A stretch of DNA of 64,000 nt from an uncultured bacterium. GTDB taxonomy: Bacteria; Armatimonadota; UBA5829. Positions 24,873 through 43,047 of this stretch are shown piece by piece. Where the stretch lies: assembly GCA_963775535.1 (NCBI GenBank), contig CAVZJH010000055.1, forward strand, positions 86,311 through 150,310, read 5' to 3'. The first letter of the stretch is position 1; every line of letters begins with the position of its first letter. Both the position numbers and the translations under genes were made by a program. The notes below the pieces were generated by a model. The model was not told where the DNA came from and made no database searches. It saw only the letters and a program-made list of their open reading frames with translations.

Positions 24873-26703
24873 TTGAGGCAGCTTATGCAATCCAGGGCTA
24901 TTAAGGGCATTTGTTACGTGCTTATCGTAGCTTTTGTTTCTTCTATAGCGCCATTGTCGCTTCCGACCCCGGCGAAAGCCGATCTGATGCCCACTTACTC
25001 CGTGGGTGTCGTTGATTTCGTTAACGAATCCGGAGTCCAGGGGGATTTCCTTGCGAGGCTGGCAACCGATGCAGTGGTGGTGGAATTAGCCAAGACCGGC
25101 CGCTACGATGTGGGCGGCGCCACCCGAGCCATGATAAAGAAATCCATGGACGATCTCGGCCTGCATCCGCCGCTTACTACGATCGGTCTTGTGAGGCTTG
25201 CAGAGGACCTTCAGGTCGACGCAATGCTTCAAGGATCCATCAAGTCGGTTCAACTGGCTGGCTCCGGTCCCACCAGGCGGGCTTCTGTCACACTGGTTCT
25301 TCAGATGAGGGACCGTGCGTCTGCTGAGATCATAAACGGCGCAGTCCAGACCGGTAATTCCAGCAGCCGCGTAGGCTACACCTGCGACGATGACGAACTG
25401 ATCAGCGAAGCAATAAGCAACGCTGCTTTTTTGGCCGTCAAGACGATGGTCGATTACATTATCCCCGAAGCCACCGTTCAGATGAATTTCGGGGACAATG
25501 AGGTTATGCTCAACAAGGGCGCTCGCGATGGCCTTAAGCCCGGGATGAGAATGATCGTGCTTCGGCAGAACGAAATCATCGGCTATGTCGAGATTCGTCA
25601 GGTTAACCCGATGGACAGTATGGCGCAGGTCGTCAAGTCGATGAGAGGCATCCAGCCTGAAGATAAGGTTCGTGCGATTTTCGATATGCCGACCGTGAGC
25701 AGTACGCTGAAGTCCGAGCCTTTGCCGTCCGGCGCGCCAAAGAGCAGCGGCGGTAGGAGTAACACACTCAGCAAGATCGGGAAGGCGCTGCTCATCGGTG
25801 CTGTCGTTTTTGGCCTGGTGTCTTTGTTTAGTGGCGGTCGCGGAACTGGGAGTCCTGCAAGCATCGGCGCGTCCTCCTCGACGCCTACCACGATCACCTG
25901 GAATCCGGCCGCGTTTTCTCATGGCCTCAATGTTATCGAGTATGATGTCCTCAGGGATAATATGGCGGTGAGCGCACAACCCGTAAGGGTAATAAGCGAC
26001 CCATCCGCCATCGATGCGGGCAAGACTGACGTATATAGCTTGTATGGGACAACCACGGCGACTAACGTGGTCTACAACTCCATGACCAGTAACCCATCCA
26101 CAACTATCAGCCAGTTGAACTGGAATGTTCCCGCTGAGCCTTACGGCAATACTCATACTTACCAGGTCAGAGTGCTCTACCAGATGACCGCCGGTAACGA
26201 CCCCGACAGGTTCATCAGGCACGTCAACCAGCACCACAACCACAACCACGACTAGTACCACGTATGCGTTCTCGCCTGTCAGCAATTCCATAATTGCGAC
26301 GGCGACTCAGCCGGTCCAGAATACGGATGTCGTGCAGCCTGCATACGATCCTTCCGTGGGCCCGTCGGATCTGCTCGTCAGCGACCTCCAGGCAGGGAAT
26401 GTTAACTTCCAGTGGAAGCGCAAGGATGGCGCGGACACTTACTACGTAGTTGTCCAGCCTACCAATCCGGGCACCGGCCCGACCTGGCAAAGTCCTGTCA
26501 TTCATGAGACTGGTCCGACTGTGGCATTGTCGAGCAGCATGCTCGCCGACCTGGCCAGGGTGTTGTCAGGCACCGCATACGCGGGTTCGGTAATGAGCTG
26601 GTGGGTATACCAAAGGCACTCCACGGACACCAGTCCGGCATGGGTGCAGAGCCAGGAAAACAGGTTCACCATCGCAGCAACCCCACCGCCGCTGCCGTCC
26701 TAG
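24873..26703 (+). CDS. membrane-anchored protein with CsgG/LpoB-like N-domain and FN3-like C-terminal domain (one frame break)
   Basis: TTG start 10 nt after AGGAGG, then a signal peptide. YSVGVVDFVNESGVQGDFLARLATDAVVVELAKTGRYDV resembles CsgG/LpoB/TolB-N type domains. A TM helix is present (ALLIGAVVFGLVSLF). The frame shifts near 26195-26225 into a Thr-rich linker plus LLVSDLQAGNVNFQWKRKDGADTYYVVV (26332..26703 ORF). Confidence 0.6.
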
Positions 26704-26742: not shown

Positions 26743-29102
26743 ATGGAACGTTGCGCGTATGAGTGGAATAGGCGCCTGATATTTGCCGGCTCGTTGGTAG
26801 TGTTGGTCGGCCTGCTGCTTGCAAGCATAGCAGGGGCAGGCACCCCAAATGCGACTTATGTGCCTAATGAGTATCTGGTTCACGTGCAGCCTGGGGCGAC
26901 GCAGGCGGAAATCAATCAGTCGATCGGCCAGATGGGAGCGACACTCATCAAGCCCAGCGGGTTTCACGATACCTATCTGGTAAGGCTTGGCCGGACGTCT
27001 TCGGTTGGGTCGACTGACACGATGCGCGCAACTTCCTATCAACCTTCCAGGTGGGTCATCACGAGTGTTGAGCCGAATGCCATCTGCAAGGCGTATGCAA
27101 TCCCGAATGATCCGTATTGGAGCGATATGTGGAACATGCGCTCGATTAATATGCCGGCTGCATGGGACTTGGAAAAAGGCTCATCGAGCGTAACGGTTGC
27201 AGTGCTGGACACTGGTGTTGCGAATCACCCGGACCTTGCCAGCAGAATCACTGCGGGATACAATTTCGAGGCAAATACCACGGACGCAAGTCAGGACTTG
27301 GAAGGCCATGGCACCTGGGTGGCGGGCGCGATTGCGGCGCAGGGCAACAATGGTGAGGGTGTAGTCGGCGTCTGTTGGAACGGCGTTCAGATTATGCCGG
27401 TCAAAATCTTAGACGACACGGGCGCCGGCACGTTGGATACGGCGCTCAGCGGCCTTAGTTTTGCCGAGACAAATAACGCCAATGTCGTGAACATGAGCTG
27501 GGGCTTCCCGTCGGGCTCCGATATTCCCACATTGGAGAGCAAGCTGGCCGAACTGAACAACCTTGGAATCATCCTGGTTGCCGCCGCGGGCAACAATGGT
27601 GAAACGAGCGATCCGTCTATTGGTCCACCGGCGGTGTACCCTGAGTGCATCTGTGTCGCTTCCGTCGGCCCATTCGACGAGATTGCGCCATATTCGAGTT
27701 ACGGTCCTGGAAAGATAGTAAGCATCGCCGCCCCCGGTGGGGACGATACCGTGGGTAGCTCAGGCTGGGTTTGGAGCACTGCGGTGACTTGGAGCGGCAC
27801 CACTCCAACCTACACTTACCAGGGACCGTATACTGCTTCGGACGGGACTGCCTGGGGTTGGGAGGGAACGTCGATGGCAACCCCATTAGTAGCCGGAGCT
27901 GCAGCGCTTCTGCGCAGCTATGGCGTGGCGCCCGCTAATATTAGAAGCCGATTGATCAACAGTGCGCGCCCCCCCAGTTCAGGGGGCATGGATCCTGTTA
28001 AATATGGCGCCGGCATCCTGGACGTTCAGGCTGCGCTGATCAATTCGACCCTCAAGATTGTCACACCTGCCAAGGGCTCCACAGTGAGCGAGACCCCGCA
28101 ATTTCAGATTGCCATTCAGGGTTTGGACATTAACAGCATCAACGTGTATGTGGATTACGCAGACCTGAATGGTGATGGGATACCCGATAGCTCGACGGAG
28201 ATTCCGGTAATAAGCGCGTTGAACATAGCGTCGTATCTGAACGTTACGCAGACTGCCATCACATTCACACCCCCCATACCGACGTTGAATACGCTTGTGC
28301 CGGGGGTCCATAATATCTACGTATCCGGTTCATCCCTGGCCGATGGCACCACGGTGTCAGACTGGGGGACATTCACGGTTGCCCAGTATAAAGTGACTCA
28401 GGGTCTGCACATGTTTGCATTTCCGTATGCATTGCCGAGCCTGACTGCACAAGCGCCTTCGAGTTTCCTGGTCGATGCGAGTGGGAACAGCGCTCAGTTC
28501 GGACTCAATCAGTATCCCCGCTCGACCATGATTCGCTGGATAGCCGCGCCACGGTCGTCGACTAGTACTTCGCCTATCGGTTATGTGACTTACTCGCCGG
28601 CCAATCCGCTGGATCTGGTTTGGACGAACCCTTACTATACGCTTGATAACGGCACAACTCTTACTGTCGGTGGCGGAATATATACCAACGTTATGACCGG
28701 AATGCCGGTCACCGCGGGGCCTGCCGGCTCTGCGTTTTGGCTGATTCTTCCTGAAGACATGTGCATTACCAATGACGTTCCATTGGAATCACTGACTCAA
28801 TTTGACGGATCAAAGGGCTACCAGATTCAACTGTAGCAGTGGGTGGAATATGTTCGGCAACCCTTATGAGCACGAGATTACGTCGCAGGCTGCGCTGTTT
28901 ACCTACCAGGGGCAGACGAAGAAGTCTCCTTGACGCTGAAAACGCCGGATGGGTAGGAACAGTTATTTACGGTTACAACGGTTCCGTGTATCAGAGCGTG
29001 TCCAGCAACGACATGCTCGAACCCTACCAGGGTTATTGGATAGTCGCATTGGTTGGCGGGACTGATCAGACAACTGCTCTTACAATGACGGTTTTGCCAT
29101 AG
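26743..29102 (+). CDS. subtilisin-like serine protease (S8) with I9 propeptide and shared C-terminal module (two frame breaks in the last 300 nt)
   Basis: Catalytic D (VAVLDTGV), H (HGTWVAG) and S (GTSMATPLVAGAAALL) are present. The main ORF ends at 28836. After shifts near 28825-28835 and 28915-28930 the reading continues SSGWNMFGNPY ... SLLDAENAGWVGTVIYGYN ... LEPYQGYWIVAL (28839..29102 ORF). Confidence 0.85.
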
Positions 29103-29260: not shown

Positions 29261-31268
29261 ATGAATTATATCCGGGGCATTATCATTTCAATAGCCTGTG
29301 CGGGATTGCTGATGCTGGGAGTCTGCGCCTGGTCTCAAAATTCCGGGAACACGGCGCAGTATGTAACGTTGGAAAACCAGTACCATACAGTTCCTGCTGG
29401 GTGTTTCAGGGCAGGTTTCATCGGACCTGACAAGTGATGGTCAAAGTGATCCGGCCACCGGACGCTTTGGCGTGGTCACCGAGACGGGTGATCCGCAGGT
29501 TCCGGGAGATGATAGGCAGGCGCTGATCGTCCAGTCGCTGTATCCCTGTGGATATTGGGCGTACCTGGAAGGTGAACGTCGGAGGCACTATTTATGTTAT
29601 TGGTGATTCCGCAACCGGTTCGTGCTTAATATCCGCCGTCTGTGTGTAGTAAATCCGCCTGCTCGCGGGACTCGACCTTGGCAAGGCAGGGCCGTTTATT
29701 GATGGCACGTGGCAGATCACGGGCTCTACTGCTCCTGTAGCGACTTTCAGGGTAGCATATCAGTCTAGTGCGCGATCAGGTCAGGTTTCAACTCACGATT
29801 GTGAACTCGGCAGCCACGGCTCAGAGCATCGGAGCCGCGATGGAGTGCGCTGCTTCGGAGGAGGATAACGGTCCAGGCGGGTATCCGTTTATTCAGGGTA
29901 TAGGACAGACAGCCACGCCTGGAGCTCAGCCCCAGGTCTTTGGACAAGTGTTCAGTGGCAGCAATGTGCCCAGTATGTTTGAGTGCTATGACGACGTGCA
30001 GAGCCCGGTCGTTGTGGGGCGGACGACACTGAACCAGGCGGATTGTGTTGCGCCTGACTACGTGGCTGTCGGCGAGTGGCAGGCTTTGGCTTCTCCGGCC
30101 ACCTGGCTCAGCGGGAATGCCGCAGATCCGAATAATTATGTGCCGGACCCCGACACGCCGGTAGCTCAGCTTGCCTGGATGTCGGAGTGGCAGCAGACTG
30201 CTATGGCGTCCGGCGCCGCACGAACGCTGGTTACCTATTACGGTGTCGGGGCGGCGAGACCCGCGTGGACTGTGAGCGCGGGCGCAGGTCAGGTGCAAGA
30301 CAGTGTAGCGCTGGCTGTAGAGGGGCCACGCTCGCTCCAATACGACAGCACTACGACTGGTCAGAACGATCTCACACCCAACCCCTTCAACATAACGGCC
30401 TATGTCTATAACCTGGCGACGGACCCCGGCCCTTACAACTGACCGACGTGAATGCCTCGCTGTATCTGCCGGCTGGCTTGCAACTGACGCCGGGTCAAAC
30501 CGCGGAGCAGACCGTCGGTGATGTGCCGATCAACTCAGAGGGCACACCCGTTCAGTGGACCGTGCAGCCCACTGGCCTATATTCGGGCAATCTGGAATAT
30601 TTCATTATTGCGCGAGATTCATCGGGTTGGCAGCAGGTGGTTAGCCTTCCGATAGATGGTTCCTGCGACCAAGCAAACCGTTTTCAGATATGGATGGCAG
30701 TTGATACAAGTGCCGTTCACATTCAATAACTTCGCGATCAGTCACATATTCAATGGCCTGACACAGGGGATCGTTCGGAGCCGAATACTACAATACGGCC
30801 AGCGGCAGCTACGTGCCCGTGCAGCAGGTGCAGCCGGGGCAGGCATTCTGGATGTATGTGAATGGCGTGTCGCAGTCGACTCCGCAAGCGTTCACGCTTG
30901 CAGCCGACACGGCGATCGTGGGACAGGAAGATGGAAAGCAGTATGCGGAGCAGGACGTTAGTCTTCTGCCGGGTTGGAACCTGATAGGAAACCCGTTGTC
31001 TACCCCGTGTACTGGGGCCAGGTGCTTGTTTATAAGGACGGTGTTGAACAGTTTCGCTCAATCAAGCAGTCCAAAATAGCTGGATAAGCAAAATGCCAGT
31101 TTACCTGGAATCCGAACAGCAACTCTTACCAGTACTTGAGCGACTTCGCAGCGCAGTTGCTTCCGTGGCAGGGTTATTGGGTAGGCGCAGTCGCCTGTTA
31201 CGCTGATCTTCCGGCCGGAGGTATGGCCGGGCGGTGATGTTACGGCTAATCCAGCGGATGGCACATAA
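29261..31268 (+). pseudogene. secreted protein with Ig/CARDB-like domain and two GW...GYW modules, heavily frame-broken
   Basis: Signal peptide MNYIRGIIISIACAGLLMLGVCAWS. The fragments are 29219..29437, 29768..30442, 30448..30729 (LTDVNASLYLPAGLQL...), 30656..30961 and 30813..31079. The sense can be followed across at least six shifts and ends ...LLPWQGYWV.... The exact 3' end is uncertain (31237 or 31268). Confidence 0.55.
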
Positions 31269-31603: not shown

Positions 31604-31981
31604 ATGAGATCTATTCATAAACGTTTGCCCTTGGCGGCATTGATATCGGCATTGCTTCTGTGTGCGGCGGGGACCGGCGTAATGGCAGGGTTAACCCTGA
31701 CCTGCACTCCGAACGAGGCGACAGCCAACTCCGTGTGGAATTTTACTGCCACCTGGACCGCCAACGTATGGCCGACTGGGTCTCCGGGCACCGCCGCAGG
31801 CACTACTGAAGGTCTTACATACGATGAGAATTACGTGGTCGCCTCTGGGGCGCACGCTCCGAGTGCGGTCGGACCAGAGCGCTCGACTTCCGATTCCTGG
31901 CTGATGGCTTATCCCTATTTCCTGGGATTCGGGCCTCCGTCACCTTTTACGGCTCAAGATGAGTATTATTACGGTCACTGA
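31604..31981 (+). CDS. giant surface protein, fragment 1 (signal peptide)
   Basis: MRSIHKRLPLAALISALLLCAAGTGVMAG. The sense continues in frame 1 after the stop (…LNTDKNPVGYVERPPDPLQP). Confidence 0.6.
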   Translation: MRSIHKRLPLAALISALLLCAAGTGVMAGLTLTCTPNEATANSVWNFTATWTANVWPTGSPGTAAGTTEGLTYDENYVVASGAHAPSAVGPERSTSDSWLMAYPYFLGFGPPSPFTAQDEYYYGH

Positions 31982-32282
31982 ATACCGATAAGAATCCAGT
32001 TGGCTATGTGGAGCGCCCGCCGGATCCGCTTCAGCCAATTGTCGAATTGGCCAGCAATAGTGAAGCCAGGTATGACCGTGGGCTGAACATAGTTGTAGAT
32101 GAGTCGGTAAACAACATGGATTCTACGGACGATCCTCCTGTCGTTCGCGGGGCTATTGATCCCAATACGGGTATAAACTGTCATGCAGAATATGATTGTC
32201 CCCCATATGGACGCGGTTGCCGCTGTGCCAGGCACGGGCGGCTCGCCTGGGAGTGCTGCAATCCCGGAAATAAAGCCTTTCA

Positions 32283-33086
32283 TTGTTACATCGCATGATC
32301 CGGATCTTCCTCATAGGGGTGTGGGCGGACTTCGCCCATAATATTCCGGTGGCTGCGCACCTGACGCAGCTCCAGGACTGGCCCGGAACTCAGCCGCCGG
32401 TCAACGTGATTGAGATCGACGACATGAACGCCGCGGACAGTGTAACCCAGTATTATGTCTCTTATTATTATCCGGGCGAAAATTATGTTGCCACCGCTTC
32501 CTATCCGCTGCCCGCACCGTATACTGTGTATCAGTTGAAGCCGACCAGGACCGCCAATGGCATGGTGGTCAAGATCAATGATGGCATCCTGCACCTTAAC
32601 AAGACCCCTTCAGGGGGCGCGGGCACTGCAGCCGGCGGGCTGCTGGGGGTATACGACAACCCAAACCTTGTCAGTCCGGATTATTCCGGCGTTACCAGTA
32701 AGCCCACGTCGACCCTTGCTTACGACATACCTGGAACAGCGGGGAAAGCTTACGGCGTAATACATCTGCCTGCCCTTCCGCAGAGTACCGCGATGGTGTA
32801 CATAAAAGTCAGCTCATACGCCATTGTGAATGTTAATACCGCGATTGTCCCATCGGACTCTACTTCAGCATTATTCAACCTCAGCACGGGCGTTTATGAT
32901 TCGAAGCAGGGCATCATAAAACTCACGACGCCGCTCTCAGCGCCTACGGTCAACACGACAGTCACGGATTCTACCGGCACGTATACCATCGATACGATGG
33001 GGAACAAAGTAGCAATTAAGTTCACGCCGCTCAGCAGGAATGCTATTACCGTGGGGCAACCGGTCCTTCAACAGCGACGGCGATAA
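32283..33086 (+). CDS. giant surface protein, fragment 2
   Basis: 267 aa. It contains GVYDNPNLVSPDY and GVYDSKQGIIKLTTPL motifs. The sense continues in frame 2 near 33051-33062 (…AITVG / TGPSTATAITCDPPG). Confidence 0.6.
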   Translation: MLHRMIRIFLIGVWADFAHNIPVAAHLTQLQDWPGTQPPVNVIEIDDMNAADSVTQYYVSYYYPGENYVATASYPLPAPYTVYQLKPTRTANGMVVKINDGILHLNKTPSGGAGTAAGGLLGVYDNPNLVSPDYSGVTSKPTSTLAYDIPGTAGKAYGVIHLPALPQSTAMVYIKVSSYAIVNVNTAIVPSDSTSALFNLSTGVYDSKQGIIKLTTPLSAPTVNTTVTDSTGTYTIDTMGNKVAIKFTPLSRNAITVGQPVLQQRRR

Positions 33087-33211
33087 CCTGTGATCCTCCT
33101 GGAACCGTTAACCCGGACACCACTATAGTTCCTAACGCCGAGGGTACATTCAACTTCACCAGTACAACTAATCTTCTCCCGATCGGAACGGACGCGGTTT
33201 CGATCACCTAT

Positions 33212-34618
33212 TTGTGCAATGATTCGGATGCAGGCCCCGAGGGCGCTATATGGCTGGACAATATTAATAGTGCCAGCGAAGGCCCGATACCGATGGACTA
33301 TGATAGTGGAACCCCGGCTACCGGGGCCATATACAAGGTGTCGGTCAGCGCGGGTCTGAATATGAGCAACGATAACCAGTGGCCTCTTCCTGAGTTTGGG
33401 GACAGCGGCCCGGGACAGTGGAGCAATAACCATCTTTTATGGGGGTCGGCGCTCAAGAGTGGAACAATTCCACCTCTTTGGTATGCGCCGCGGCTTATAG
33501 CCGGTGTCCTTGGCGTTGCTCAAACGATCAATAACCCACCTATCCATGCGATAGGCTATATGACCCCACAACCATATTTCTACGACACGAATTTGTCTTC
33601 TGTAATCGTCCACGACAGCCGCCCGAGAGAGCTCTTAACGAACGGCAATCTGGAGATGATCGATCACGCCGGCATTGCTTTCCACAGCCTGCCTAATGGC
33701 ACGGGAGCCGGCCTGTCTTTCTTGACGTGCTATCCGGATCCCGCTCCTAATGGGGTAGGGTGGCCACAGGGGTATGACATATATCCGGTGACAGTAGAGC
33801 CAGTCCAGGAATTGAACTCTACCGAGCCGAACGATGGCTCCAGCTCGACTGAGTTCGTATTCAGAGTCAGATACAATAATGCAGACAATCTGCCTCCACT
33901 ATCGTGGATGCATTACTGGAATGATCCGTGGTTGTTCAACGGGGGCGAGGTCGAGACCAAGGCCGATGAAAGCGGCGTTATATTATATCTCGATGAGTCG
34001 GGAACGGGCGACTATCATCCTCACTTTATGCAGCCGGAGGTTACGACCCAGACAGGGGCGGGCAACGTCTACGTTTACAGGGTTATTCCGCACAGCGCGA
34101 TCGGCATATTTAACGCCCCGCCGCCCTACCCATTGGGCGATCTATATGACGGGGGTTATGGCGTATACAACTTCGACAATACACTGTATCAATCGCTGTC
34201 AATTGGCGTATACCACTATTTCTTCGGGTGCTCCGATGACAGTATTGTTCTCGACGATGCCAAGACATATCTGTTCGATTGGCAGCCGAATGAAACGGAG
34301 TGGGGCTACACCTCCATCCAGGATAATTCAGACTGGCTGAATCACGAGAGTACCGGCACGGATCCTTCAGTTATCCGCCAGGTCGCCGGTTACAGTGCGA
34401 TCAACCGCGCTCCGCAGCGCGTGCCATCGTGCGTAGGTGATCCGAATGTTACTGGTCCATACGACTCAACAATCTACGTAGACCGGCCGGATCGTGTGCC
34501 GGGCCTCTTCGAGCAGACTTTGCAGACAAATCTCGGAACTACTTATCCCTGGAAGGCGTCACAGCATCCTGAGATTACTTGCAGCCTGGGGATGTACCAG
34601 GTACAATCCCGACACTGA
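33212..34618 (+). CDS. giant surface protein, fragment 3
   Basis: 468 aa. The ORF is open upstream of the listed TTG. It contains TEFVFRVRYNNADNLPP. It joins the next fragment near 34600 (…SLGMYQ / YNPDTDTG). Confidence 0.6.
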   Translation: MCNDSDAGPEGAIWLDNINSASEGPIPMDYDSGTPATGAIYKVSVSAGLNMSNDNQWPLPEFGDSGPGQWSNNHLLWGSALKSGTIPPLWYAPRLIAGVLGVAQTINNPPIHAIGYMTPQPYFYDTNLSSVIVHDSRPRELLTNGNLEMIDHAGIAFHSLPNGTGAGLSFLTCYPDPAPNGVGWPQGYDIYPVTVEPVQELNSTEPNDGSSSTEFVFRVRYNNADNLPPLSWMHYWNDPWLFNGGEVETKADESGVILYLDESGTGDYHPHFMQPEVTTQTGAGNVYVYRVIPHSAIGIFNAPPPYPLGDLYDGGYGVYNFDNTLYQSLSIGVYHYFFGCSDDSIVLDDAKTYLFDWQPNETEWGYTSIQDNSDWLNHESTGTDPSVIRQVAGYSAINRAPQRVPSCVGDPNVTGPYDSTIYVDRPDRVPGLFEQTLQTNLGTTYPWKASQHPEITCSLGMYQVQSRH

Positions 34619-35933
34619 CACGGGAGACTCCATGGACGATCTCTTCGTGAGGTGGGACGACCCGAAATATGGCAATGGGCGTTTCCTGGGCACAATAGAC
34701 CCGTTCTACAGAGCAGTCAATCCTGACCTGCCGGGCGCTTTTGCGTCGTCATCGCTGTCCGCTCTCGCAGAGACATGCGGTTTGACCAGCCAGACGGACA
34801 TAACATTCCAGGTGCTGTTTCAGCAAATCAATGATACTGCGCCGAATTACGTGCAGGTATACATAAACAACGCGAACGAGATGACCGGCACTGATACAGC
34901 GCATGCTTTCACAGCCTATACTATGTATCCCAGTCCTAATCAGACGCAGCCGTATGACTATAAACACGGCGTATGGTACCAGTACACCACTAAGCTTCCT
35001 ATGGGGCCGCACACGTACTATTTCCAGGCCTATGATGGAATACACGAGGCAAGGTATCCCGTCCGGCCCGACCAGTTAAACTATGGGGGCGCAGGCAGCT
35101 ATTATAATGATTGGTGGGTACCAACCAGCAGTCTCGAGACCGATCGCGGCACCGCGAGCTATGTCGACAACGACTATTGCCCTGGACCCTTTATCAACCA
35201 TCCGTGTGTGTTGAGCCAAAATACCGTGACGCCGGGCACCGGAAAGCAGGGGAATCAGTTCGAGTACAGGGTAATGTATGCCGATCCTGATGGGCAGAGA
35301 GTCTACAGCGCGAAGCTCACCATAGAGATTAACGATCGAGGTGACACACGCACGTTCGATATGATACCGGAGAGTCCGTTCGCCGACCCGACCGCGAATC
35401 ATTCACAGGATTACATGAATGGCGTCTACTACTACCTGGACACCGCTTCCATAGGCGACCTGGTCCTTGAACAGGGCACGCGGCGCTATTATATGGAGTT
35501 TACAGATGACTGGGGCAGGCAGTTCGATGTGACCGACACCGTAGCCGGTGAGGCAACCAGGCTGCCCGCCGGCGATGGCAACTGGATAGACGGACCGATC
35601 GTGTCTGCAAACCATGCGCCTACTCTCGCGAACGGAAGTGTGCAGTCACAGGACGGCACGTCAAACGCCGCCACTCTGTGGACCTATAACGTTACCTACC
35701 GTGACTTGGACAACGATCCGCCAGCCCTTATCAAGGTCTATCTTGGCTTGCTTGAACCCGACGGGAGGACCATCCTGTGGGATACCGGGCATACGATGTT
35801 ACAAGATGACCCGACCAATACGGTGTACAGCAACGGCATATCGTTTAGTTACCAAACAAGATTGGGAGCCATTGATTTAGTGGATCCCAGCGGGTACTCA
35901 ACCTCAACCGAAGCAGGACCTCTATGCCTTTGA
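34494..35933 (+). CDS. giant surface protein, fragment 4
   Basis: Three repeat-A domains (ITFQVLFQQINDTAPNYVQVYI…HTYYFQAYDG, FEYRVMYADPDG…YYMEFTDDWG, WTYNVTYRDLDNDPP…). It joins the next fragment near 35885-35915 (…DLYAFEAYDG). Confidence 0.65.
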   Translation: MCRASSSRLCRQISELLIPGRRHSILRLLAAWGCTRYNPDTDTGDSMDDLFVRWDDPKYGNGRFLGTIDPFYRAVNPDLPGAFASSSLSALAETCGLTSQTDITFQVLFQQINDTAPNYVQVYINNANEMTGTDTAHAFTAYTMYPSPNQTQPYDYKHGVWYQYTTKLPMGPHTYYFQAYDGIHEARYPVRPDQLNYGGAGSYYNDWWVPTSSLETDRGTASYVDNDYCPGPFINHPCVLSQNTVTPGTGKQGNQFEYRVMYADPDGQRVYSAKLTIEINDRGDTRTFDMIPESPFADPTANHSQDYMNGVYYYLDTASIGDLVLEQGTRRYYMEFTDDWGRQFDVTDTVAGEATRLPAGDGNWIDGPIVSANHAPTLANGSVQSQDGTSNAATLWTYNVTYRDLDNDPPALIKVYLGLLEPDGRTILWDTGHTMLQDDPTNTVYSNGISFSYQTRLGAIDLVDPSGYSTSTEAGPLCL

Positions 35934-35976
35934 AGCGTACGATGGCGCTGCCTGGGCCACCTATAATTCATCCGCG

Positions 35977-37131
35977 GTGGATGAAGACAGGTCCAACGCT
36001 GCGGGCTGCTACGTGCTTCAGAACCTTGTGCCACTGACCACGGATGAGTTTGCCATCAGGCCGATAATTGCACAAAGGGGAACAGTCAATGCGGCTGGTA
36101 ATGCGGTCACGCCCGATAGCCCGGGAGATATAATCAAGGTCTGGGGCGTCTATCAGACGGAAAACCTGGATCAGGACCCAACTTATACTACGAACTACTA
36201 TAACAGTGCTGCGGTATACAACCCGGGTGATCCTACCGTTCCTCTGATAGCGGGTGCGCCCTCGGGAGTTCTATGGATCCAGTATGAAGCTCAGTCACCG
36301 ATAGTCGGTCCGCTTCCTATTAATCTACCCGCGCCCGCCGGTGTCATTCCGGACGCGCAGTTATACCAGAACTATTCGAGCAATCCGACTCCGATATTGA
36401 TCGATGACCAGAAGAACGGCTGGATCTCATCAGACGATCCGACAGACCATGGTGTCATGGTAATGCACGCTGTGGCCGCAAATGCAAATCTGCCGACACT
36501 GACGTATGTTACTCCCGACAGTGCCGCTAACATCGCATCGATCGAAGGAATTTACGACAATCCGTTGTTGACCGGCACGAACTACTACGATCCAACTGTT
36601 CTGAATGAGCCGGCCGTTCAGACCGGCACGGTGACAGAAGGAACAGATGGCAATCTATATGCCAGCGCGAGCTGCGTATATCCCAGCGCGAATGACCCGT
36701 GGCCGCTGGGCGGGAATGATAAGATACAGGGTGTTTTCGCTGCGGCGGATCTGTCGGGCGCTAATTACTATGGAGGACAGCTCCAGTGGCAGCAGGCTCA
36801 GGCGGAGGGTACCCTCAGCTTATCCAGTGTTTGGCCGGACAATCCTTGGGACATTGCTGTGATCTCCGGTGTTTACCAGACGATGGTCGCTTCTTCGGGC
36901 GCGACGAACTATATCACGACAAATACATCCGGGTACCGAATCCGTTTGTTACGCCACCGGGCCCGACAAATGAGTTCATACCCCTTAGTACCGCTTTGGC
37001 GTCGCCGGGGCCTGCATTCATATACTACTACCCGGCAGTCGCTGCAAACCAATACTATAACCCGCCCAGCAGTGCGATTGGATCGAATGGCCAGCCGAGC
37101 GGACCGGGTGGCACGTATTGGATACCGCTGA
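35977..37131 (+). CDS. giant surface protein, fragment 5
   Basis: Four repeat-B motifs (GVYQTENL..TTNYY, GIYDNPLLTGTNYY, GVFAAADLSGANYY, GVYQTMVASSGATNY). It joins the next fragment near 36905-36925. Confidence 0.65.
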   Translation: MDEDRSNAAGCYVLQNLVPLTTDEFAIRPIIAQRGTVNAAGNAVTPDSPGDIIKVWGVYQTENLDQDPTYTTNYYNSAAVYNPGDPTVPLIAGAPSGVLWIQYEAQSPIVGPLPINLPAPAGVIPDAQLYQNYSSNPTPILIDDQKNGWISSDDPTDHGVMVMHAVAANANLPTLTYVTPDSAANIASIEGIYDNPLLTGTNYYDPTVLNEPAVQTGTVTEGTDGNLYASASCVYPSANDPWPLGGNDKIQGVFAAADLSGANYYGGQLQWQQAQAEGTLSLSSVWPDNPWDIAVISGVYQTMVASSGATNYITTNTSGYRIRLLRHRARQMSSYPLVPLWRRRGLHSYTTTRQSLQTNTITRPAVRLDRMASRADRVARIGYR

Positions 37132-39965
37132 ATGTTAAGCCCGGCGCCTCGGGCGCGCCTGCTGTTGGCAGCACGGTATACATACAGGCCCTTACGAGGA
37201 GCTTTAGCTGCGGCGATTCATCCTTGAGACTGACGACGCCTCTCCCTGAAGTGTCGATGACTGCCACGGCGGTCGCGGGCCAATACGTGCTTGCTATCCC
37301 GACCCCGGCGCTAATAGGCAGAGTAGACGGAGTATTCACTTCGTCGAGCCTGACCGGAACGAACTATTATTCGGGTGCGCAGAGCGTTCCGACTAATCCG
37401 TACACAACCGGAGACACGTTGATCCGCCTGTCAGCGCCGTTGAGTGGCACTGTCTATATAGCATACGTGCCGCTCAACCGGTCTGTTTATCTCAGTTACT
37501 CGGACATAAGCTTCACGCATCAAGCCCGCGGCACGGCCGTCGATGCGATACTACCGGATGGAATGACGCTGTCATGGGCCCAGGGAGTATCCTACTTCAT
37601 GCCGGATGGTTGGTCGGTGCCGAACGTTCACATGCGTGGCAATACGACGGACGTTACCGCCGGCACGGTTGGTATATGGCTTAATTCAGACCTGTCTCAG
37701 ACCAACTATTTCAATCCCAGGTGGACCTCCCGGTACATAGATATAACATCCGGAACGGACATTATACCCGCTACCGAGGACAATAGACCGGCTACGCTTA
37801 CCGCGGCTTCGGTCCCGCAGGGGCAGTTGCCCGCAGCAGGTTCAGGAGTGAGCATGGGAACATTGCGGCTTTCCACTCTCGCTCCAACTGGGACCAATTA
37901 CATGTACGCCCGCTATTATCAGTTCGGCGACTACCATATAGACAGGTGGAACCGGAACGTAATGTTCATTACAAATCCGGCGCTGCCTGCGGGGACCAGC
38001 CTCCAGGCGTCCTACTTCTTCGGAACAAAGATGCCGCAGTTGCTGACGGCAAACACGCCTCCAACTCTGTCGCCACCGACAACGAATGGGAAGGCTGCGG
38101 CCAACTGGGGTTTAACCGAGTTGACTTCTACGCTGACGCCTGTCCAGGGGTCACGAAGCGCGCAATACGTATACTCAGTAATCTATGAGGACCCGGACGG
38201 ACCTAACGGGCAGGCTCCGGAGTATGTGAGGGTGTATATCGACGGTGTTGCCTACGATATGACTCCCGCATACACTGGCACTCCTCCATATGGCTCGGGG
38301 GCCTTATACACATACACTCCGCCCAGCGGACTTACGGGAGGTTCTCATAAGTACCACTTTGAGGCCTCAGACGGTGCGGCAGTTGCGTGGCTTGATGATG
38401 TTCCGCCTTACTCACATCAGAGTATTGTTGGATCAGTTGTATCATCGGTGGTCGATTTTAACGGGCCGTGGGTAGATAATCCTCCGGATCTTACCGTCGG
38501 CGCCGCGTCGCCGAATCCGACCTCGGGCAGTATCGCCACGACGGAAAGTATCGATTACACGGTTACATACGACGATATGGATAATGATCCGCCTTATTTC
38601 TACAATCCGGTCACGGACATCTATGATAACCTGGACGGCAATGGCGTTCCTGATGGCCTGGATTGGTCGGGATCTCCGAGATTGTGGATTGATTCCGGCA
38701 CTACGGATCAGACCTACTCCGGTGTTACATCCGCCTTGAATGACGATCCTCTTGCGCCTGGCAAAAAGAGGATTATAGTTGCGACGACCGCAAGCGGAAG
38801 TAATCCAAACTGGACTCAGAACGAGTTCGCCGGCCAGTTGCTGCAGATCACCAACGGCACCCTGCTGAACCGGGTGTATTTGATCCAGAGCAACACTGCC
38901 AACACTCTGACACTGTCTACAGATGATTTGCTGAAGGACGGTGTAGTAGCAGGCGGGGCCAACGCCAGTGCGTTCGTCATCAATGGCCTGCTTTTGTCCA
39001 AGGTCGATCCAACCCAGCAAAACTATACACAGGGCATAGCATACAAGGTTACTGTGCCGGGATTGGCGGTAGGTTCTCACAAGTTCCACTTTACCGCCCG
39101 CAGCAGGCTAACGAAGCCACAATGGCTGCAGACTGAGATGCTCGCGCTGATACCGCCGCAGATGCCGGTTGCCTACTCGTCTCTGGCACGATTCCCTGCC
39201 AGCGGCGAATTGACCGGTCCTACGGTATCCAGCCAGCCGCCGACCGGCGTCGTGGCGCCGACTCTAACCAGCGACGCAGACCATTCGCTCTACGTTGGTC
39301 CTACATATCAGCGTGTGGCTGTAACTTCAACCACCGCAGTCGGGCCTATCGACGCGACCGCGTTTGCGCTGATCCGTGAAGTTCGCGGGGTATACAAGAA
39401 CGCGAACGACTTCGATCTGACTGCTGTTCCGGACAGCGCGACGAATGTGGCGAACGGCTATTACGATCCGGTGGCTACGACGACTCCGTTCCAGCCCGGG
39501 GATCAGACCATAAAACTGACCACAGCTATTCCCGCGTCTATAGCGGGAGCGCCGATGGTGCAGTTTGCTGTGCCTACTCTCGATACAACCACGAATATAG
39601 CATCACTTCAGAGCGTCACGCCGGATGATCCGACGGTTATCGATTCCGTGGTAGCGGTATCGCTGAACCCGGACCTCTCGGGTGTTAACTACGTTTCCTC
39701 GGCTTCTCCGCCACCGCCGACCCTGGGTGGTACTGTATCGTTTAACACCATAACGTTGACCCAACCCCTGCCTGCAGGAACTACACGGGTGTATTTGGAG
39801 TACACGCTGAAGTCGGGCATCACATATCCGCCGATGTATGTGGAATACTTCAAGATGACAAGCACGAACCCACTGCTCGCCACTGATACGGCTACGTTCA
39901 GGGCGACATACCAGGACGCCGGTGGCTACCCTCCAAGTTATCACGATGGATACAGGGTTACGTAA
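36786..39965 (+). CDS. giant surface protein, fragment 6
   Basis: 1059-aa ORF with mixed repeat-A domains (YVYSVIYEDPDG…HKYHFEASDG, IDYTVTYDDMDNDPP…HKFHFTARS) and repeat-B motifs (GVFTSSSLTGTNYY, GIWLNSDLSQTNYF, GVYKNAND…NGYY, LNPDLSGVNYV). Confidence 0.7.
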   Translation: MAAGSGGGYPQLIQCLAGQSLGHCCDLRCLPDDGRFFGRDELYHDKYIRVPNPFVTPPGPTNEFIPLSTALASPGPAFIYYYPAVAANQYYNPPSSAIGSNGQPSGPGGTYWIPLNVKPGASGAPAVGSTVYIQALTRSFSCGDSSLRLTTPLPEVSMTATAVAGQYVLAIPTPALIGRVDGVFTSSSLTGTNYYSGAQSVPTNPYTTGDTLIRLSAPLSGTVYIAYVPLNRSVYLSYSDISFTHQARGTAVDAILPDGMTLSWAQGVSYFMPDGWSVPNVHMRGNTTDVTAGTVGIWLNSDLSQTNYFNPRWTSRYIDITSGTDIIPATEDNRPATLTAASVPQGQLPAAGSGVSMGTLRLSTLAPTGTNYMYARYYQFGDYHIDRWNRNVMFITNPALPAGTSLQASYFFGTKMPQLLTANTPPTLSPPTTNGKAAANWGLTELTSTLTPVQGSRSAQYVYSVIYEDPDGPNGQAPEYVRVYIDGVAYDMTPAYTGTPPYGSGALYTYTPPSGLTGGSHKYHFEASDGAAVAWLDDVPPYSHQSIVGSVVSSVVDFNGPWVDNPPDLTVGAASPNPTSGSIATTESIDYTVTYDDMDNDPPYFYNPVTDIYDNLDGNGVPDGLDWSGSPRLWIDSGTTDQTYSGVTSALNDDPLAPGKKRIIVATTASGSNPNWTQNEFAGQLLQITNGTLLNRVYLIQSNTANTLTLSTDDLLKDGVVAGGANASAFVINGLLLSKVDPTQQNYTQGIAYKVTVPGLAVGSHKFHFTARSRLTKPQWLQTEMLALIPPQMPVAYSSLARFPASGELTGPTVSSQPPTGVVAPTLTSDADHSLYVGPTYQRVAVTSTTAVGPIDATAFALIREVRGVYKNANDFDLTAVPDSATNVANGYYDPVATTTPFQPGDQTIKLTTAIPASIAGAPMVQFAVPTLDTTTNIASLQSVTPDDPTVIDSVVAVSLNPDLSGVNYVSSASPPPPTLGGTVSFNTITLTQPLPAGTTRVYLEYTLKSGITYPPMYVEYFKMTSTNPLLATDTATFRATYQDAGGYPPSYHDGYRVT

Positions 39966-39970
39966 ACGTA

Positions 39971-42223
39971 GTGTTCGATGACATCGGAACCTCTCAGGCA
40001 ATGCATTTGTTGATTCCGCCTACGCTGGCACAGGTGCCGGATTTCACGAAGACTAACTGGTTTACCACTGATCCGATTACCCTGCCGCAGGGCACTCACA
40101 CGTACCACTTCGAGGCATCTGACGGATGGTTCGTTGTGAGATACCCATCACCACCGTCCGGTCCTATAACGGGAAGCGATTATACCGTCAGCGTGAGCTA
40201 CAAGCCCGTACTTTCGGCTGGTGGCGTCACCCCGGCGGTTGGAGCAATATCACAGGCGTTCAACTTCACCGTAACATATACGGATCAGGATGGAACGTCA
40301 GCCACGCCGCCTCACGTGTTTATGAGGATAATTCAGAACAGCAATCCGCCGGTCGAGCTTACACCTCGGGACATGACAACGACATCTACCAGCTCGAACT
40401 ATGCATCCGGTGTTGTATATCAATATACGTCCGATCCAACAAAGGACATATTCACACCAGGTACATATAATGTGATCTTCGAAGCGACTGATGAACTCGG
40501 TGAAGCAGCCGATCCATACCCGGGAGCTACGGATCCGCCGGTTAAGTTCACCTGCGGAAATTATACGAGTATCCCGGTTCTGACAAATCCTCAGGTTCTG
40601 GCAACTGGGACCAATCTACCTGAGGGCGATCTGAACTCGACGTTCACTTATCAAGTTACGTATTCGGACAGCGACGATCTTCCGCCGGTTTCCAACGGAC
40701 AGAAAGATGTCCTCAACGTGAGCATCTACAACCTGGATCTACCGGCTGCCCAGCAGTTGATACAGACACTTCCGATGACCAGGGTTACTACGGGCGCGGT
40801 GGACTACACGGCGGGAGTCGCTTACCATACGACTTCGACAATATCAGGTAAATCACTGCAGCCGGGACGGCACTCGTTTGTGATAACTGCATCCAACGGC
40901 ATTAATGCCGCGGTTCCGGTTACCGGAAGTGGACCAACACTGCTGCTTCCGTATTTCGACAACGTCAAATTGATTTCTGCTGACCTGACCAACGCAGGTG
41001 ACCTCGTTAAGGATCCTGCCGCAGCCACATCAGTGACAAATTCACTTGTAGGGGACAATGTGTTGCTCATCGGCAATCTAGAGTTCCCGGTGGGTACTAC
41101 GACAGCTCCGCCCTCGGAGGTCACGAACATTGTCGTTCAGGTGACAAAGCCGGATGGAACTTCTCTAAGTCTATCGGCTACGGGACAGTTGGCTACCGGA
41201 AGGACTTACTACCTGAATGTTAGTTACCCCACCGGCACCGACCCGGCATTGCAAACAGGCACGAGCTTGACTCTGTCTGCCAGCGGTACCTGGCAATTCG
41301 GAGTGTCGTGGGCAGGCGGATCCGGATGGGATAGCGCAACATTGAATCCCAATCTGAGCGCATCGGTCGGCGGTCCGATGCGCACGATGGCTGTTGCAGA
41401 TCCGACGAACCCTGCGACCAGCATTCCTGTTGTCGATATGGTTGCGCCTCCGAAGATCATGGGCTCGACCGACATAGGTCAGGTCTTCGGGTCGGATAAG
41501 GCAGTTAATATGCAGATTGTAAAGTGGGATCCGGCATCGAGCAGCTATATTCGCTACGGAAATGGTCCGTTCCCGGCGTGCAGCCCGGGAGATGCATTCT
41601 GGATAAAGCCGAACTCGACGTACGTCGCGACATACCCCGCGGTGGCAATCACGACCGACGAGATAAATGATGGGCTGTTGGCATCCGCCGATCCGCAGTT
41701 CCCTCTAGATGTTACGAAGGACTACAGGCTGATAAATGTCTTTGTCAAGGACTATACGAAGGATTCCACGGGAAAAGTCCTGCCGTGCACCATATCGTTG
41801 ACGACTGGCTGGAACCAGTTCGGTGATATCTTCTTCAATTGGAAGAAGGACGCCACGGGGGCCGACCTCATCCCAAAAGTGGATGTTGGAATCCCAATCA
41901 GCGAACTGAGTGTTGTCTACTTGAATCAGACCAAATCATTCGCTGATGCCGTGACTGCTAACTGGATACGCGGGTATGCGTGGCGCTACGATGCCAGCCA
42001 GAACAAGTACGTGGAAGTGAGCCCTACGGACGCTGGAGCAGAAACAGTGCTGTATGCTTGGAGCGGTTACTGGATAAGAGCATTCGTTAATTGTCAACTG
42101 ATCATTGATCCGAACACCACGTATAATGGTACAATGTCGGTCAAGGGTCTGGCTAGTGCGGTGAAGCCTGCGTCGGCAACATCTAATAGCAATATTGATT
42201 TGCCGCCTGCGGTTCCAAACTAG
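39971..42223 (+). CDS. giant surface protein, fragment 7 (C-terminal, carries the shared GW...GYW module)
   Basis: The frame shift near 39948 splits one repeat-A domain (ATFRATYQDAGGYPPSYHDG / IQGYVNVVFDDIGTSQAMHL…HTYHFEASDG). The C-terminus is TGWNQFGD … SFADAVTANWIRGYAWRYD … AWSGYWIRAF. Confidence 0.7.
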   Translation: MFDDIGTSQAMHLLIPPTLAQVPDFTKTNWFTTDPITLPQGTHTYHFEASDGWFVVRYPSPPSGPITGSDYTVSVSYKPVLSAGGVTPAVGAISQAFNFTVTYTDQDGTSATPPHVFMRIIQNSNPPVELTPRDMTTTSTSSNYASGVVYQYTSDPTKDIFTPGTYNVIFEATDELGEAADPYPGATDPPVKFTCGNYTSIPVLTNPQVLATGTNLPEGDLNSTFTYQVTYSDSDDLPPVSNGQKDVLNVSIYNLDLPAAQQLIQTLPMTRVTTGAVDYTAGVAYHTTSTISGKSLQPGRHSFVITASNGINAAVPVTGSGPTLLLPYFDNVKLISADLTNAGDLVKDPAAATSVTNSLVGDNVLLIGNLEFPVGTTTAPPSEVTNIVVQVTKPDGTSLSLSATGQLATGRTYYLNVSYPTGTDPALQTGTSLTLSASGTWQFGVSWAGGSGWDSATLNPNLSASVGGPMRTMAVADPTNPATSIPVVDMVAPPKIMGSTDIGQVFGSDKAVNMQIVKWDPASSSYIRYGNGPFPACSPGDAFWIKPNSTYVATYPAVAITTDEINDGLLASADPQFPLDVTKDYRLINVFVKDYTKDSTGKVLPCTISLTTGWNQFGDIFFNWKKDATGADLIPKVDVGIPISELSVVYLNQTKSFADAVTANWIRGYAWRYDASQNKYVEVSPTDAGAETVLYAWSGYWIRAFVNCQLIIDPNTTYNGTMSVKGLASAVKPASATSNSNIDLPPAVPN

Positions 42224-42314: not shown

Positions 42315-43047
42315 ATGAATGGAAGAGGCTGCCCTTGGAAATGGCTTGCCTTATGTGTTGTGATTAGTATTGTCGCAGTGGGTACGGCGAATGCCGGACT
42401 CTTCGGACTGGGAAAGGGCAAGAAGCATGCAGGAAAGGCATCTCGATATTCGTTAGTGGTGTTTCCTTTCGACAATGGCACTGATACAACTGTGCCTGAC
42501 TCATACGGGGGCTATGTCGCGTCCGATGTGCGCACTATGCTGACCGGGAAATCAGAGTATATTCCATATCTTTATACGGATCGGCTGCCATCCGTTCAGA
42601 GGGCCAAGGAAGAGCAGTCCCTGAAACCGTCGGATGTTAATCCACCGTTTGCCGATGATAAGTTGAAGCCGCTCAAGATTGCGCAGGTCATTGGCAGCGA
42701 TTACTACCTTGTAGGATCGATAGAGGAGATAACCGTCGATACCGCCAAGAAAGTTGCGACGGTGACGCTGAAAGCAGATGTGTTCGATACAAGGAACGGA
42801 AGGCTGGTTCGGACTTGTCTTGTTTCCGGTCGCACGCCGGAGACGGTGAAAACGTCCGAAAGCGGAGGATCTCAGAGACATTGCGAAAGGCGCCGCTGTT
42901 ACCAGACTCATAGCGGAAATAACAGCAGATGAGTCGTCTTCGAGTGCAGACCCTGCAGTGAAGCCTGAAGATACAGCGGCAGCGGGTCAGACCCAGACCC
43001 CGGCTCCCGACAAGCCGCTTGCAAAAGCCGCCGCGCCGCAGAAATAG
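42315..43047 (+). CDS. secreted CsgG/LpoB-like-domain protein (one frame break near 42860)
   Basis: ATG at 42315, 6 nt after GGAGGA, then a signal peptide. YSLVVFPFDNGTDTT…GGYVASDVRTMLTG… resembles the N-domain of the 24873 gene product. After the shift it reads …EDLRDIAKGAAVTRLIAEI… to the stop at 43045-43047. Confidence 0.55.

Follow-up and report, generated by a model that had tools for sequence, protein, structure and literature searches.

A tandem beta-domain module near the C-termini of three secreted proteins of a conserved Armatimonadota operon

Three neighbouring genes in a 64-kb stretch of DNA from an uncultured Armatimonadota soil bacterium (contig CAVZJH010000055.1; the whole stretch is referred to as the window) encode secreted proteins with similar C-terminal parts. 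They are an S8 protease, a protein of about 670 amino acids (aa; protein 2), and a giant protein, and they belong to a region of five co-directional genes with many frame shifts at 24.9-43.0 kb. What is the shared part, and does its position make it a sorting signal? The initial annotation had described a GWN…GYW module common to the three proteins. It recognised no named family and likened the module to the C-terminal domain (CTD) of the type IX secretion system (T9SS), PEP-CTERM, and LPXTG. The results show that the module is genuine and ancient, a pair of all-beta domains (an N-unit and a C-unit) located outside the cytoplasm. On present evidence, it is not a new class of sorting signal.

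The homology of the three copies is supported by several comparisons. With the frames corrected, BLASTP aligned the module of the S8 protease with that of protein 2 at an E-value of 1.5e-9 and with that of the giant at 2.5e-6; the modules of protein 2 and the giant aligned at 6.6e-4. A six-frame search of the window with hidden Markov models (HMMs) of the module by hmmsearch gave matches at exactly three places, one each in the S8 protease, protein 2, and the giant. The order and register of GWN, A, GW, Y, and GYW are identical across the three modules, as originally noticed. All three window proteins have signal peptides, and an N-terminal hydrophobic segment was observed in 97 of 115 full-length relatives. 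These matches, together with orthologues that are free of frame breaks, confirm a homologous module in three signal-peptide-bearing neighbours.

All features of the operon described here are on the plus strand. Related loci and their proteins are designated by the letters L and P. The S8 subtilase gene (26743..29102; Peptidase_S8, E = 7.8e-47) encodes a signal peptide, and its orthologues in L015 and L017 have a Fervidolysin_NPro-like N-terminal prodomain. Its C-unit (28829..29099; SSGWNMFGNPY…LLDAENAGWV…YGYNGSVYQSV…PYQGYWIVAL…ALTMTVLP, up to the stop codon) matched the C-unit HMM at E-values of 1.4e-7 and 1.5e-10. It crosses two frame breaks, at ~28836 and ~28930, and P0002 from the sister contig L001 is continuous through both. 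A probable N-unit (28402..28752; GLHMFAFPY…MIRWIAAP…YVTY…AGSAFWLILP) was located upstream by its motifs, by eye. It is divergent and contains a long insertion. For the N-unit HMM, the match was weak in the window (E = 2.9); in L015-L019, the S8 orthologues matched significantly (E = 2e-6 to 2e-8).

Protein 2 (29261..31268), which begins with the signal peptide MNYIRGIIISIACAGLLMLGVCAWSQ, has no known domains; its orthologue P0014 (667 aa) showed no match in Pfam or among PDB sequences. The N-unit of protein 2 (30659..30941; YGWQLIQVPFTF…YVPVQQVQPGQAFWMYV) contains one frame break, is continuous in P0001 and P0003, and matched the N-unit HMM at E-values of 1.2e-7 and 3e-6. The C-unit and its short tail (30954..31265; LLPGWNLIGNP…AGWIS…FTWNPNSNSYQYL…LLPWQGYWV…VTLIFRPEVWPGGDVTANPADGT, up to the stop codon) are interrupted by several frame breaks. 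The C-unit HMM therefore matched in fragments, at E-values of 9e-4 to 2.7e-7, and the uninterrupted sequence is known from the orthologues P0003-P0006. The true end of the protein is …LLPWQGYWV/RAQSPVTLIFRPEVWPGGDVTANPADGT at 31265, and it requires one more frame break than had been placed in the initial annotation.

The giant secreted protein (31604..42223) is about 3,500 aa long with many frame breaks, and its signal peptide is MRSIHKRLPLAALISALLLCAAGTGVMA. Intact orthologues have 2,670-4,908 aa. The N-unit (41252..41653; …VDMVAPPKI…QIVKWDPASSSYIRY…SPGDAFWIKP…) matched its HMM at E = 7.6e-20, and the C-unit (41786..42127; PCTISLTTGWNQFG…SFADAVTANWIRGYAWRYD…WSGYWIRAFVNCQLIIDPN), which has a 16-aa lineage-specific insertion after GWNQFG, matched at E = 3.2e-24. 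The module of the giant had been assigned to 41510-42223. This span leaves out the first strand region of the N-unit, and the start is moved to ~41252. The tail of the giant (42128..42223) was delimited in an alignment by eye of 14 giant C-termini; it is a Ser/Ala-rich linker that ends with IDLPPAVPN before the stop codon. A conserved extreme C-terminal motif, (L/F)(D/E)xPPxxP(E/D/K/N), follows the Ser/Ala-rich linker throughout the giant family (42194-42220 in the window; orthologues P0015-P0047). It is the same EPPPxP linker that leads from the module into a next domain, X, in other members, and the giants stop there. The body of the giant (31604-42223) is composed of repeated beta-rich units ending with …G.H(K/T)(Y/F)(H/Y)F.A.DG…, none of which is recognised by Pfam. 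Examples of the repeat motif G.H.YHFEASDG are seen in the open reading frames (ORFs) 34494-35933, 36786-39965, and 39971-42223.

The N-unit and C-unit profiles align with each other by hhalign (probability 97%, E = 1.1e-10). This alignment shows the module to be a tandem duplication, an N-unit followed by a C-unit, and what had been noted as a "first half-module" in protein 2 proved to be a genuine homologous N-unit. The N-unit is short, with the pattern GW.(M/L)(I/V)S.P … W.P…Y … PG.G(F/Y)W. The pattern of the C-unit is GWN.(I/F)GNP(F/Y) … SL.eA…GW(I/V) … Y.(Y/W)(D/N)…Y … L.PW.GYW..A … C.L. Relative to the N-unit, the C-unit has an extra beta-hairpin and a short helix (…SL.eA…GW(I/V)…). Among the relatives, an N-unit was found directly upstream of 160 of 178 C-units.

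The structure of the C-unit of the giant was predicted by AlphaFold2 with 36 diverse C-units as the alignment. The model, with about ten strands and one short helix, has a predicted local distance difference test score (pLDDT) of 88.4 and a predicted template modelling score (pTM) of 0.80. A run with the full module and 8 sequences gave the N-unit a pLDDT below 50, so the confident model covers the C-unit alone. Foldseek with the C-unit model found nothing significant in PDB (best E = 0.19, TM-score ≤0.34) or in BFVD (best E = 0.099). A single BFVD entry, A0A8D9C8P8, reached a TM-score over the query (TMq) of 0.54 at E = 0.63; all other TM-scores were ≤0.37. The weak resemblances were to jelly-roll/cupin-like and galectin-like sandwiches, such as SPP1 Dit. 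Within these two libraries, the modelled C-unit has no known fold relative. Cysteines of the first and last strands co-occur; both are present in 23 units, and the first alone in 0 (Fisher p = 1e-6, not corrected for phylogeny). This pattern suggests a probable intradomain disulfide and, like the N-terminal hydrophobic segments of the relatives, is in keeping with a domain that folds outside the cytoplasm.

The hairpin-helix of the C-unit (…t.SL.eA…GWI…; ~41930-41990 in the window and aa 282-301 of P0003) showed repeated sub-threshold matches to the Plectin repeat in Pfam (E = 0.005-0.075) and a match to periplakin in PDB at E = 1. It is possibly a convergent hairpin-helix motif.

The initial annotation had suggested an HMM search of metagenomic databases. 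An exhaustive profile search against 1.84 billion cluster representatives from metagenomes, clustered at 50% identity or more, revealed 4,782 clusters at E ≤1e-3 and 1,530 at E ≤1e-10. The family is found in uncultured bacteria. A word-indexed homology search yielded 12 matches with the alignment of the three copies and 5 with the 36 diverse C-units, all of them orthologues; this index is too insensitive for the family. Neither the window proteins nor more than 30 relatives of varied architecture showed a match of the module above the gathering threshold in Pfam-A (2025) or NCBIfam (release 20.0, 2026). The view that the module belongs to no named family is therefore upheld, and the match to a curated Pfam domain that would have overturned it was looked for and not found above threshold. 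Of ten clusters looked up, one, with a 1,985-aa member, had a transthyretin-family label, and the others were named "hypothetical protein" or had no name. Profile searches of PDB sequences gave chance-level matches at best (E = 0.04-0.17). The match at E = 0.04, to a plant NAC domain, was a short W.F.P..KY…AG.GYW motif in a transcription factor and was judged to be chance or convergence. A typical C-unit had no tblastn match in PLSDB plasmids, and literature searches with the motif strings and on Armatimonadota, CsgG, and C-terminal domains found nothing relevant.

The cargo in the family is diverse. It includes S8 proteases, FG-GAP/VCBS repeats with a glycosidase-like beta-propeller, BACON with macroglobulin, fn3, Big, and CarboxypepD_reg domains. 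The module is a genuine new domain family, and a non-catalytic beta module of secreted proteins is a familiar sort of family.

Is the module always at the C-terminus? The positions were examined in 158 proteins from the best 150 of the 4,782 clusters. The C-unit is followed by no more than 60 aa in 122 of the 158 proteins, and by more than 150 aa in 32. The strong bias to the C-terminus thus stands, and the obligate C-terminal position does not. A second, internal copy of the module was seen in 37 of the 158. The longer tails fall into classes. In the class of ~155-180 aa, the further unnamed domain X ends the protein. In the class of ~235-275 aa, X is followed by FlgD_ig (PF13860), or in some cases by Por_Secre_tail or CHU_C, which are T9SS-type CTDs. 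The two-module class has X and then a second module, with the stop codon 0-4 aa past the last strand and a constant spacing of ~340 aa between the modules. The module therefore opens a stereotyped C-terminal cassette, in which it stands alone or is followed by X, by X and FlgD_ig or a T9SS-type CTD, or by X and another module.

Domain X has ~150 aa with the pattern W.v.l…fG…ESP/EPP…Y..DvR…W.f.V…LtW…L.LvD…Y.F…F.I and has no Pfam match. Examples are seen at aa ~640-820 of P0050, in the last ~155 aa of P0083, P0089, P0109, P0115, and P0116, and between the two modules of the ORF 3081-9290 of L020. The X and FlgD_ig tails are not homologous to the N- and C-units (hhalign probability ≤3%). For 27 FlgD_ig-type tails, the hhalign probabilities were 0.2% against the C-unit profile and 2.7% against the N-unit profile.

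The same variation is observed among the orthologues of the window proteins. In L015-L019, from other Armatimonadota, the module is internal in the orthologous S8 protease (~1,000 aa) and in the orthologue of protein 2 (~910 aa), with 269-280 aa after it, ending in FlgD_ig. In L011-L014, the stop codon comes 0-1 aa after the module, and in the lineage of the window, 9-47 aa lie between the two. Across divergent Armatimonadota, the module is always kept in all three operon proteins, and the sequence after it is gained and lost. In the Armatimonadota lineage of the window, the cassette has been pared down to the module and a tail of 0-47 aa.

The five genes have a conserved order: a gene for an LpoB/CsgG-fold protein, the S8 protease gene, the gene for the 670-aa protein, the gene for the giant, and a gene for a small LpoB/CsgG-fold protein. 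When one genome of each GTDB species was scanned with the alignment of the giant family, 19 loci were found, and all of those with a phylum label are from Armatimonadota. The five-gene order is also present in two further metagenomic contigs. The operon is found in L003, L015-L019, L022, and L023, often directly after polA-rpsA-coaE, as in the window.

The upstream gene (24873..26703; frame break near 26255) encodes an LpoB/CsgG-fold protein with a signal peptide, a predicted transmembrane segment LSKIGKALLIGAVVFGLVSLFSG, and a C-terminal extension. It is 45% identical over 420 aa to L017:1508-3295. The Pfam model CsgG (PF03783; cut-off 20.8 bits) matched the orthologues in L017 (40.1 bits) and L015 (34.0 bits) only within the soluble alpha/beta part (model positions 3-153 of 210). 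The LpoB model (cut-off 22.3 bits) matched the L017 orthologue at 28.6 bits, and the L015 orthologue, below the cut-off, at 17.9 bits. The window copy showed no CsgG match at E ≤0.05. The synteny of this gene is kept in L001, L015-L018, and L022; L019 begins at the S8 gene. The downstream gene (42315..43044; frame break near 42880) encodes a small secreted LpoB/CsgG-fold protein. It stands directly after the giant in L003-L014, and its homologue in L021 has a faint LpoB match. The downstream gene and the N-domain of the upstream gene align by hhalign (probability 96.2%, E = 2.2e-9), and pairwise BLASTP was negative. By profile comparison, the two flanking genes are paralogues.

In L022, all that seems to be left of the giant gene is a 115-aa ORF (P0162; 10001-10348) with a giant-type C-unit and nothing else. 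It is flanked by protein 2 and the downstream LpoB-like gene, and the reduction reflects either a genuine deletion or a collapsed assembly. An Invasin_D3/Big_1 protein of ~645 aa is encoded directly after the operon in L022 (11424-13364) and L023 (11941-12358). The Invasin_D3/Big_1 protein of the window is at 54854-56785, ~12 kb past the operon, which suggests an insertion between them.

What does the module do? The explanation that we favour, tentatively, is that it is a cell-proximal attachment or co-assembly domain of surface proteins, and not a cleavable export tag. Attachment or assembly is preferred to an export tag because relatives carry the module in the middle of the same proteins. 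The module would bind one common receptor and would thereby bring the protease, the 670-aa protein, and the giant to the same cell-surface site. A candidate for the receptor is a polymer of the envelope, or the LpoB/CsgG-fold proteins whose genes form the two ends of the operon. If non-covalent, the attachment would place the protease beside its likely substrates, in a mode that may be compared to that of dockerin, SLH, or the stalk domains of T9SS cargo. The stereotyped C-proximal place, the retention in three operon proteins, the paralogous flanking genes, and a diversity of cargo typical of attachment modules are consistent with this explanation. Several points weigh against it. The tethering step is derived from architecture and synteny only. 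L020, which is the one context examined outside Armatimonadota, has no LpoB/CsgG-fold neighbour, so a receptor protein from an adjacent gene cannot be the general rule. Orthologues of the three query proteins are over-represented in the positional statistics, which come from the best 150 of the 4,782 clusters (158 proteins), and some cases with no residue after the module may be truncated by contig ends. The 160 of 178 was scored on the very upstream regions from which the N-unit HMM had been built.

A more ambitious form of the attachment explanation can be drawn, and we regard it as quite unlikely. The module would be the recognition or attachment element of a new envelope-display system of Armatimonadota. 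In this system, the bracketing LpoB/CsgG-fold paralogues would act as a ring or receptor, in the periplasm or the outer membrane, which captures the module and so exports the three proteins or holds them at the surface. The cassette of the module, X, and CTD would then be a general display stalk in many uncultured phyla.

The main rival to attachment at the cell surface is a substrate- or glycan-binding module similar to carbohydrate-binding modules (CBMs), which would bind an external polymer and target the protease, the giant adhesin, and the glycosidase-type relatives to their substrate rather than to the envelope of the producer. The conserved W and Y residues (GWN, GW, Y.YD, and PW.GYW) are typical of sugar-binding platforms. 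There are family members with BACON, NPCBM_assoc, CarboxypepD_reg, and glycosidase-like domains, some of which adjoin glycoside hydrolase genes, and the faint likeness of the fold to jelly-roll/galectin-like sandwiches such as that of SPP1 Dit is compatible with such a role. However, CBMs shuffle in position and number, whereas the N-unit and the C-unit form a fixed pair with a fixed place at the start of the cassette and a fixed spacing. Three functionally different proteins of one operon have kept the module over long evolutionary distances, and it has no similarity to any Pfam CBM model. We consider this rival somewhat unlikely. It is less likely still that the module is a passive structural element, a rigid spacer, stalk, or folding cap with no specific ligand that stabilises the C-terminal end of long beta-rich proteins. 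Most of the conserved residues are Gly, Trp, Tyr, and Pro, as is typical of a hydrophobic core and turns, an intradomain disulfide is probable, and no ligand or partner has been identified. If the module were passive, one would not expect it to be the single C-terminal element that persists in all three operon proteins while every other one comes and goes, or to be so well conserved across 4,782 clusters.

A dedicated C-terminal sorting or secretion signal, read by an outer-membrane translocon or sortase-like machinery and possibly by the CsgG-like protein of the operon, and directing export or covalent anchoring, is improbable. In its favour, the C-terminal bias is strong and the cargo is diverse. 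In the two-module proteins, the second module takes the place of FlgD_ig close to the stop codon, and the operon is headed by a gene with a Pfam CsgG-family match. This match is, however, confined to the soluble alpha/beta part common to CsgG and LpoB; in place of a demonstrated beta-pore, the window protein has an alpha-helical transmembrane segment. The proposed analogy with T9SS CTDs, PEP-CTERM, and LPXTG is not supported by the tests that were run. Orthologues of the S8 protease and protein 2 themselves have the module at an internal position, with FlgD_ig after it, and it is duplicated internally in other members. In still other members, bona fide T9SS CTDs lie downstream of it; the Por_Secre_tail and CHU_C models in P0092 and P0136 match a separate domain downstream of the module, CHU_C with 34.5 bits, above its cut-off. 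The three tails in the window, …VGGTDQTTALTMTVLP, …RPEVWPGGDVTANPADGT, and …SATSNSNIDLPPAVPN, each up to the stop codon, have neither a hydrophobic helix nor a basic cluster. No HMM of the curated sorting domains in NCBIfam matches the module, and it has no profile similarity to FlgD_ig tails. No T9SS components were seen in the 64-kb window. A shared C-terminal position alone does not make a sorting signal, and the earlier assignment was an over-reading in this respect. As for a chance resemblance or a compositional artefact of frame correction, frame breaks abound in the window and its frames were stitched by eye. Uninterrupted orthologues nevertheless contain the same module, 1,530 clusters match at E ≤1e-10, and the fold prediction is confident. 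The probability of an artefact is negligible, and the clean orthologues and profile-search matches refute it.

The comparison with known systems illustrates where the module differs. The T9SS CTDs of type A (Por_Secre_tail; TIGR04183/PF18962) and type B (CHU_C; PF13585) and FlgD_ig (PF13860) are likewise small all-beta domains near the C-terminus of unrelated secreted proteins, often with several per locus. The module shows no HMM or profile-profile similarity to them and is located upstream of such CTDs in the same polypeptides. In addition, it is a fixed tandem pair of ~200 aa that is not obligately terminal, whereas a CTD is a single domain of ~80 aa. The functional analogy that we favour would be with dockerin-cohesin and SLH, in which a shared terminal module gathers the enzymes and structural proteins of one locus on a scaffold or envelope polymer. 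The module has no sequence or fold relation to these, with neither the Ca-binding repeats of dockerin nor the three-helix motif of SLH. The beta-sandwiches of secreted subtilases (fervidolysin SD1/SD2, PPC, and the P-domain) are also all-beta and follow the S8 catalytic domain. No Pfam match to PPC or P_proprotein was found, and the module is present on the non-protease neighbours as well. No subtilase structure is among the top 50 Foldseek PDB matches listed. CBMs of the jelly-roll/galectin-like type have a similar size, a beta-rich fold, and conserved aromatics, but at TM-scores ≤0.34 and E ≥0.19, they are not the same fold by Foldseek, and the position of the module is stereotyped. In contrast to the CsgG curli channel, the upstream operon protein has an alpha-helical transmembrane-like segment and a long extra C-terminal region.

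The best match of the C-unit profile among PDB sequences was RemZ of Flavobacterium johnsoniae (8gl8_D; YSYDP..GW…MVPGRGYVVRA … LLGNPYPS), at an E-value of 0.17, which is not significant. RemZ and RemA are gliding adhesins of this species, RemZ being a T9SS surface adhesin, and the matched part of RemZ is not resolved in the structure 8gl8_D (PMC10994853). The match was not recovered with full-module profiles, and with its E-value of 0.17, RemZ was rejected as evidence and is kept as an unconfirmed lead.

The results define a large family, with at least 4,782 clusters, that has no curated model and for which no structural relative was detected in PDB or BFVD. The family is tied to a conserved five-gene operon, and its presence marks the end of giant surface proteins that is C-terminal and probably closest to the cell. 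To our knowledge, nobody knows how the giant surface proteins encoded by Armatimonadota and many uncultured phyla are displayed. At best, the module may be a handle on a new mechanism of surface attachment. At the least, it merits a Pfam/InterPro entry, through which thousands of metagenomic proteins now called "hypothetical" would gain an annotation.

The frame breaks in the window look like assembly noise and not like pseudogenes, because the sister contig L001 and the clean orthologues from metagenome-assembled genomes read through them. L001, which comes from an assembly of the same kind, is 96.1% identical to the window over 20.5 kb, with 144 gaps. The breaks in the modules of the S8 protease and protein 2 are absent from L001, in which P0002 and P0001 are continuous, and L001 has its own, different breaks. 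The orthologues of the module proteins in clean metagenome-assembled genomes have no interruptions. Frame breaks are frequent throughout the window (for example, at 28836, 28930, 30442-31200, and 32000-40000), as is typical of an unpolished long-read metagenome assembly. In a look-up of sequencing runs, 5% of the words were present in only two runs, both of which are soil metagenomes. The genes polA, rpsA, coaE, aroA, aroC, and dnaN, all within the window, indicate a bacterial chromosome.

Two other features of the window were observed outside the operon. Two adjoining transposase genes are located at 3763-5016 and 5570-6790, one UPF0236-like and one of the Mutator family, the latter on the minus strand. 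Three tandem paralogous ORFs of ~520 aa each (16967-18514, 18542-20140, and 20180-21745) were assigned to no family, with only a sub-threshold match to DM_Arn. The first of them is 58% identical to the third by tblastn against L001.

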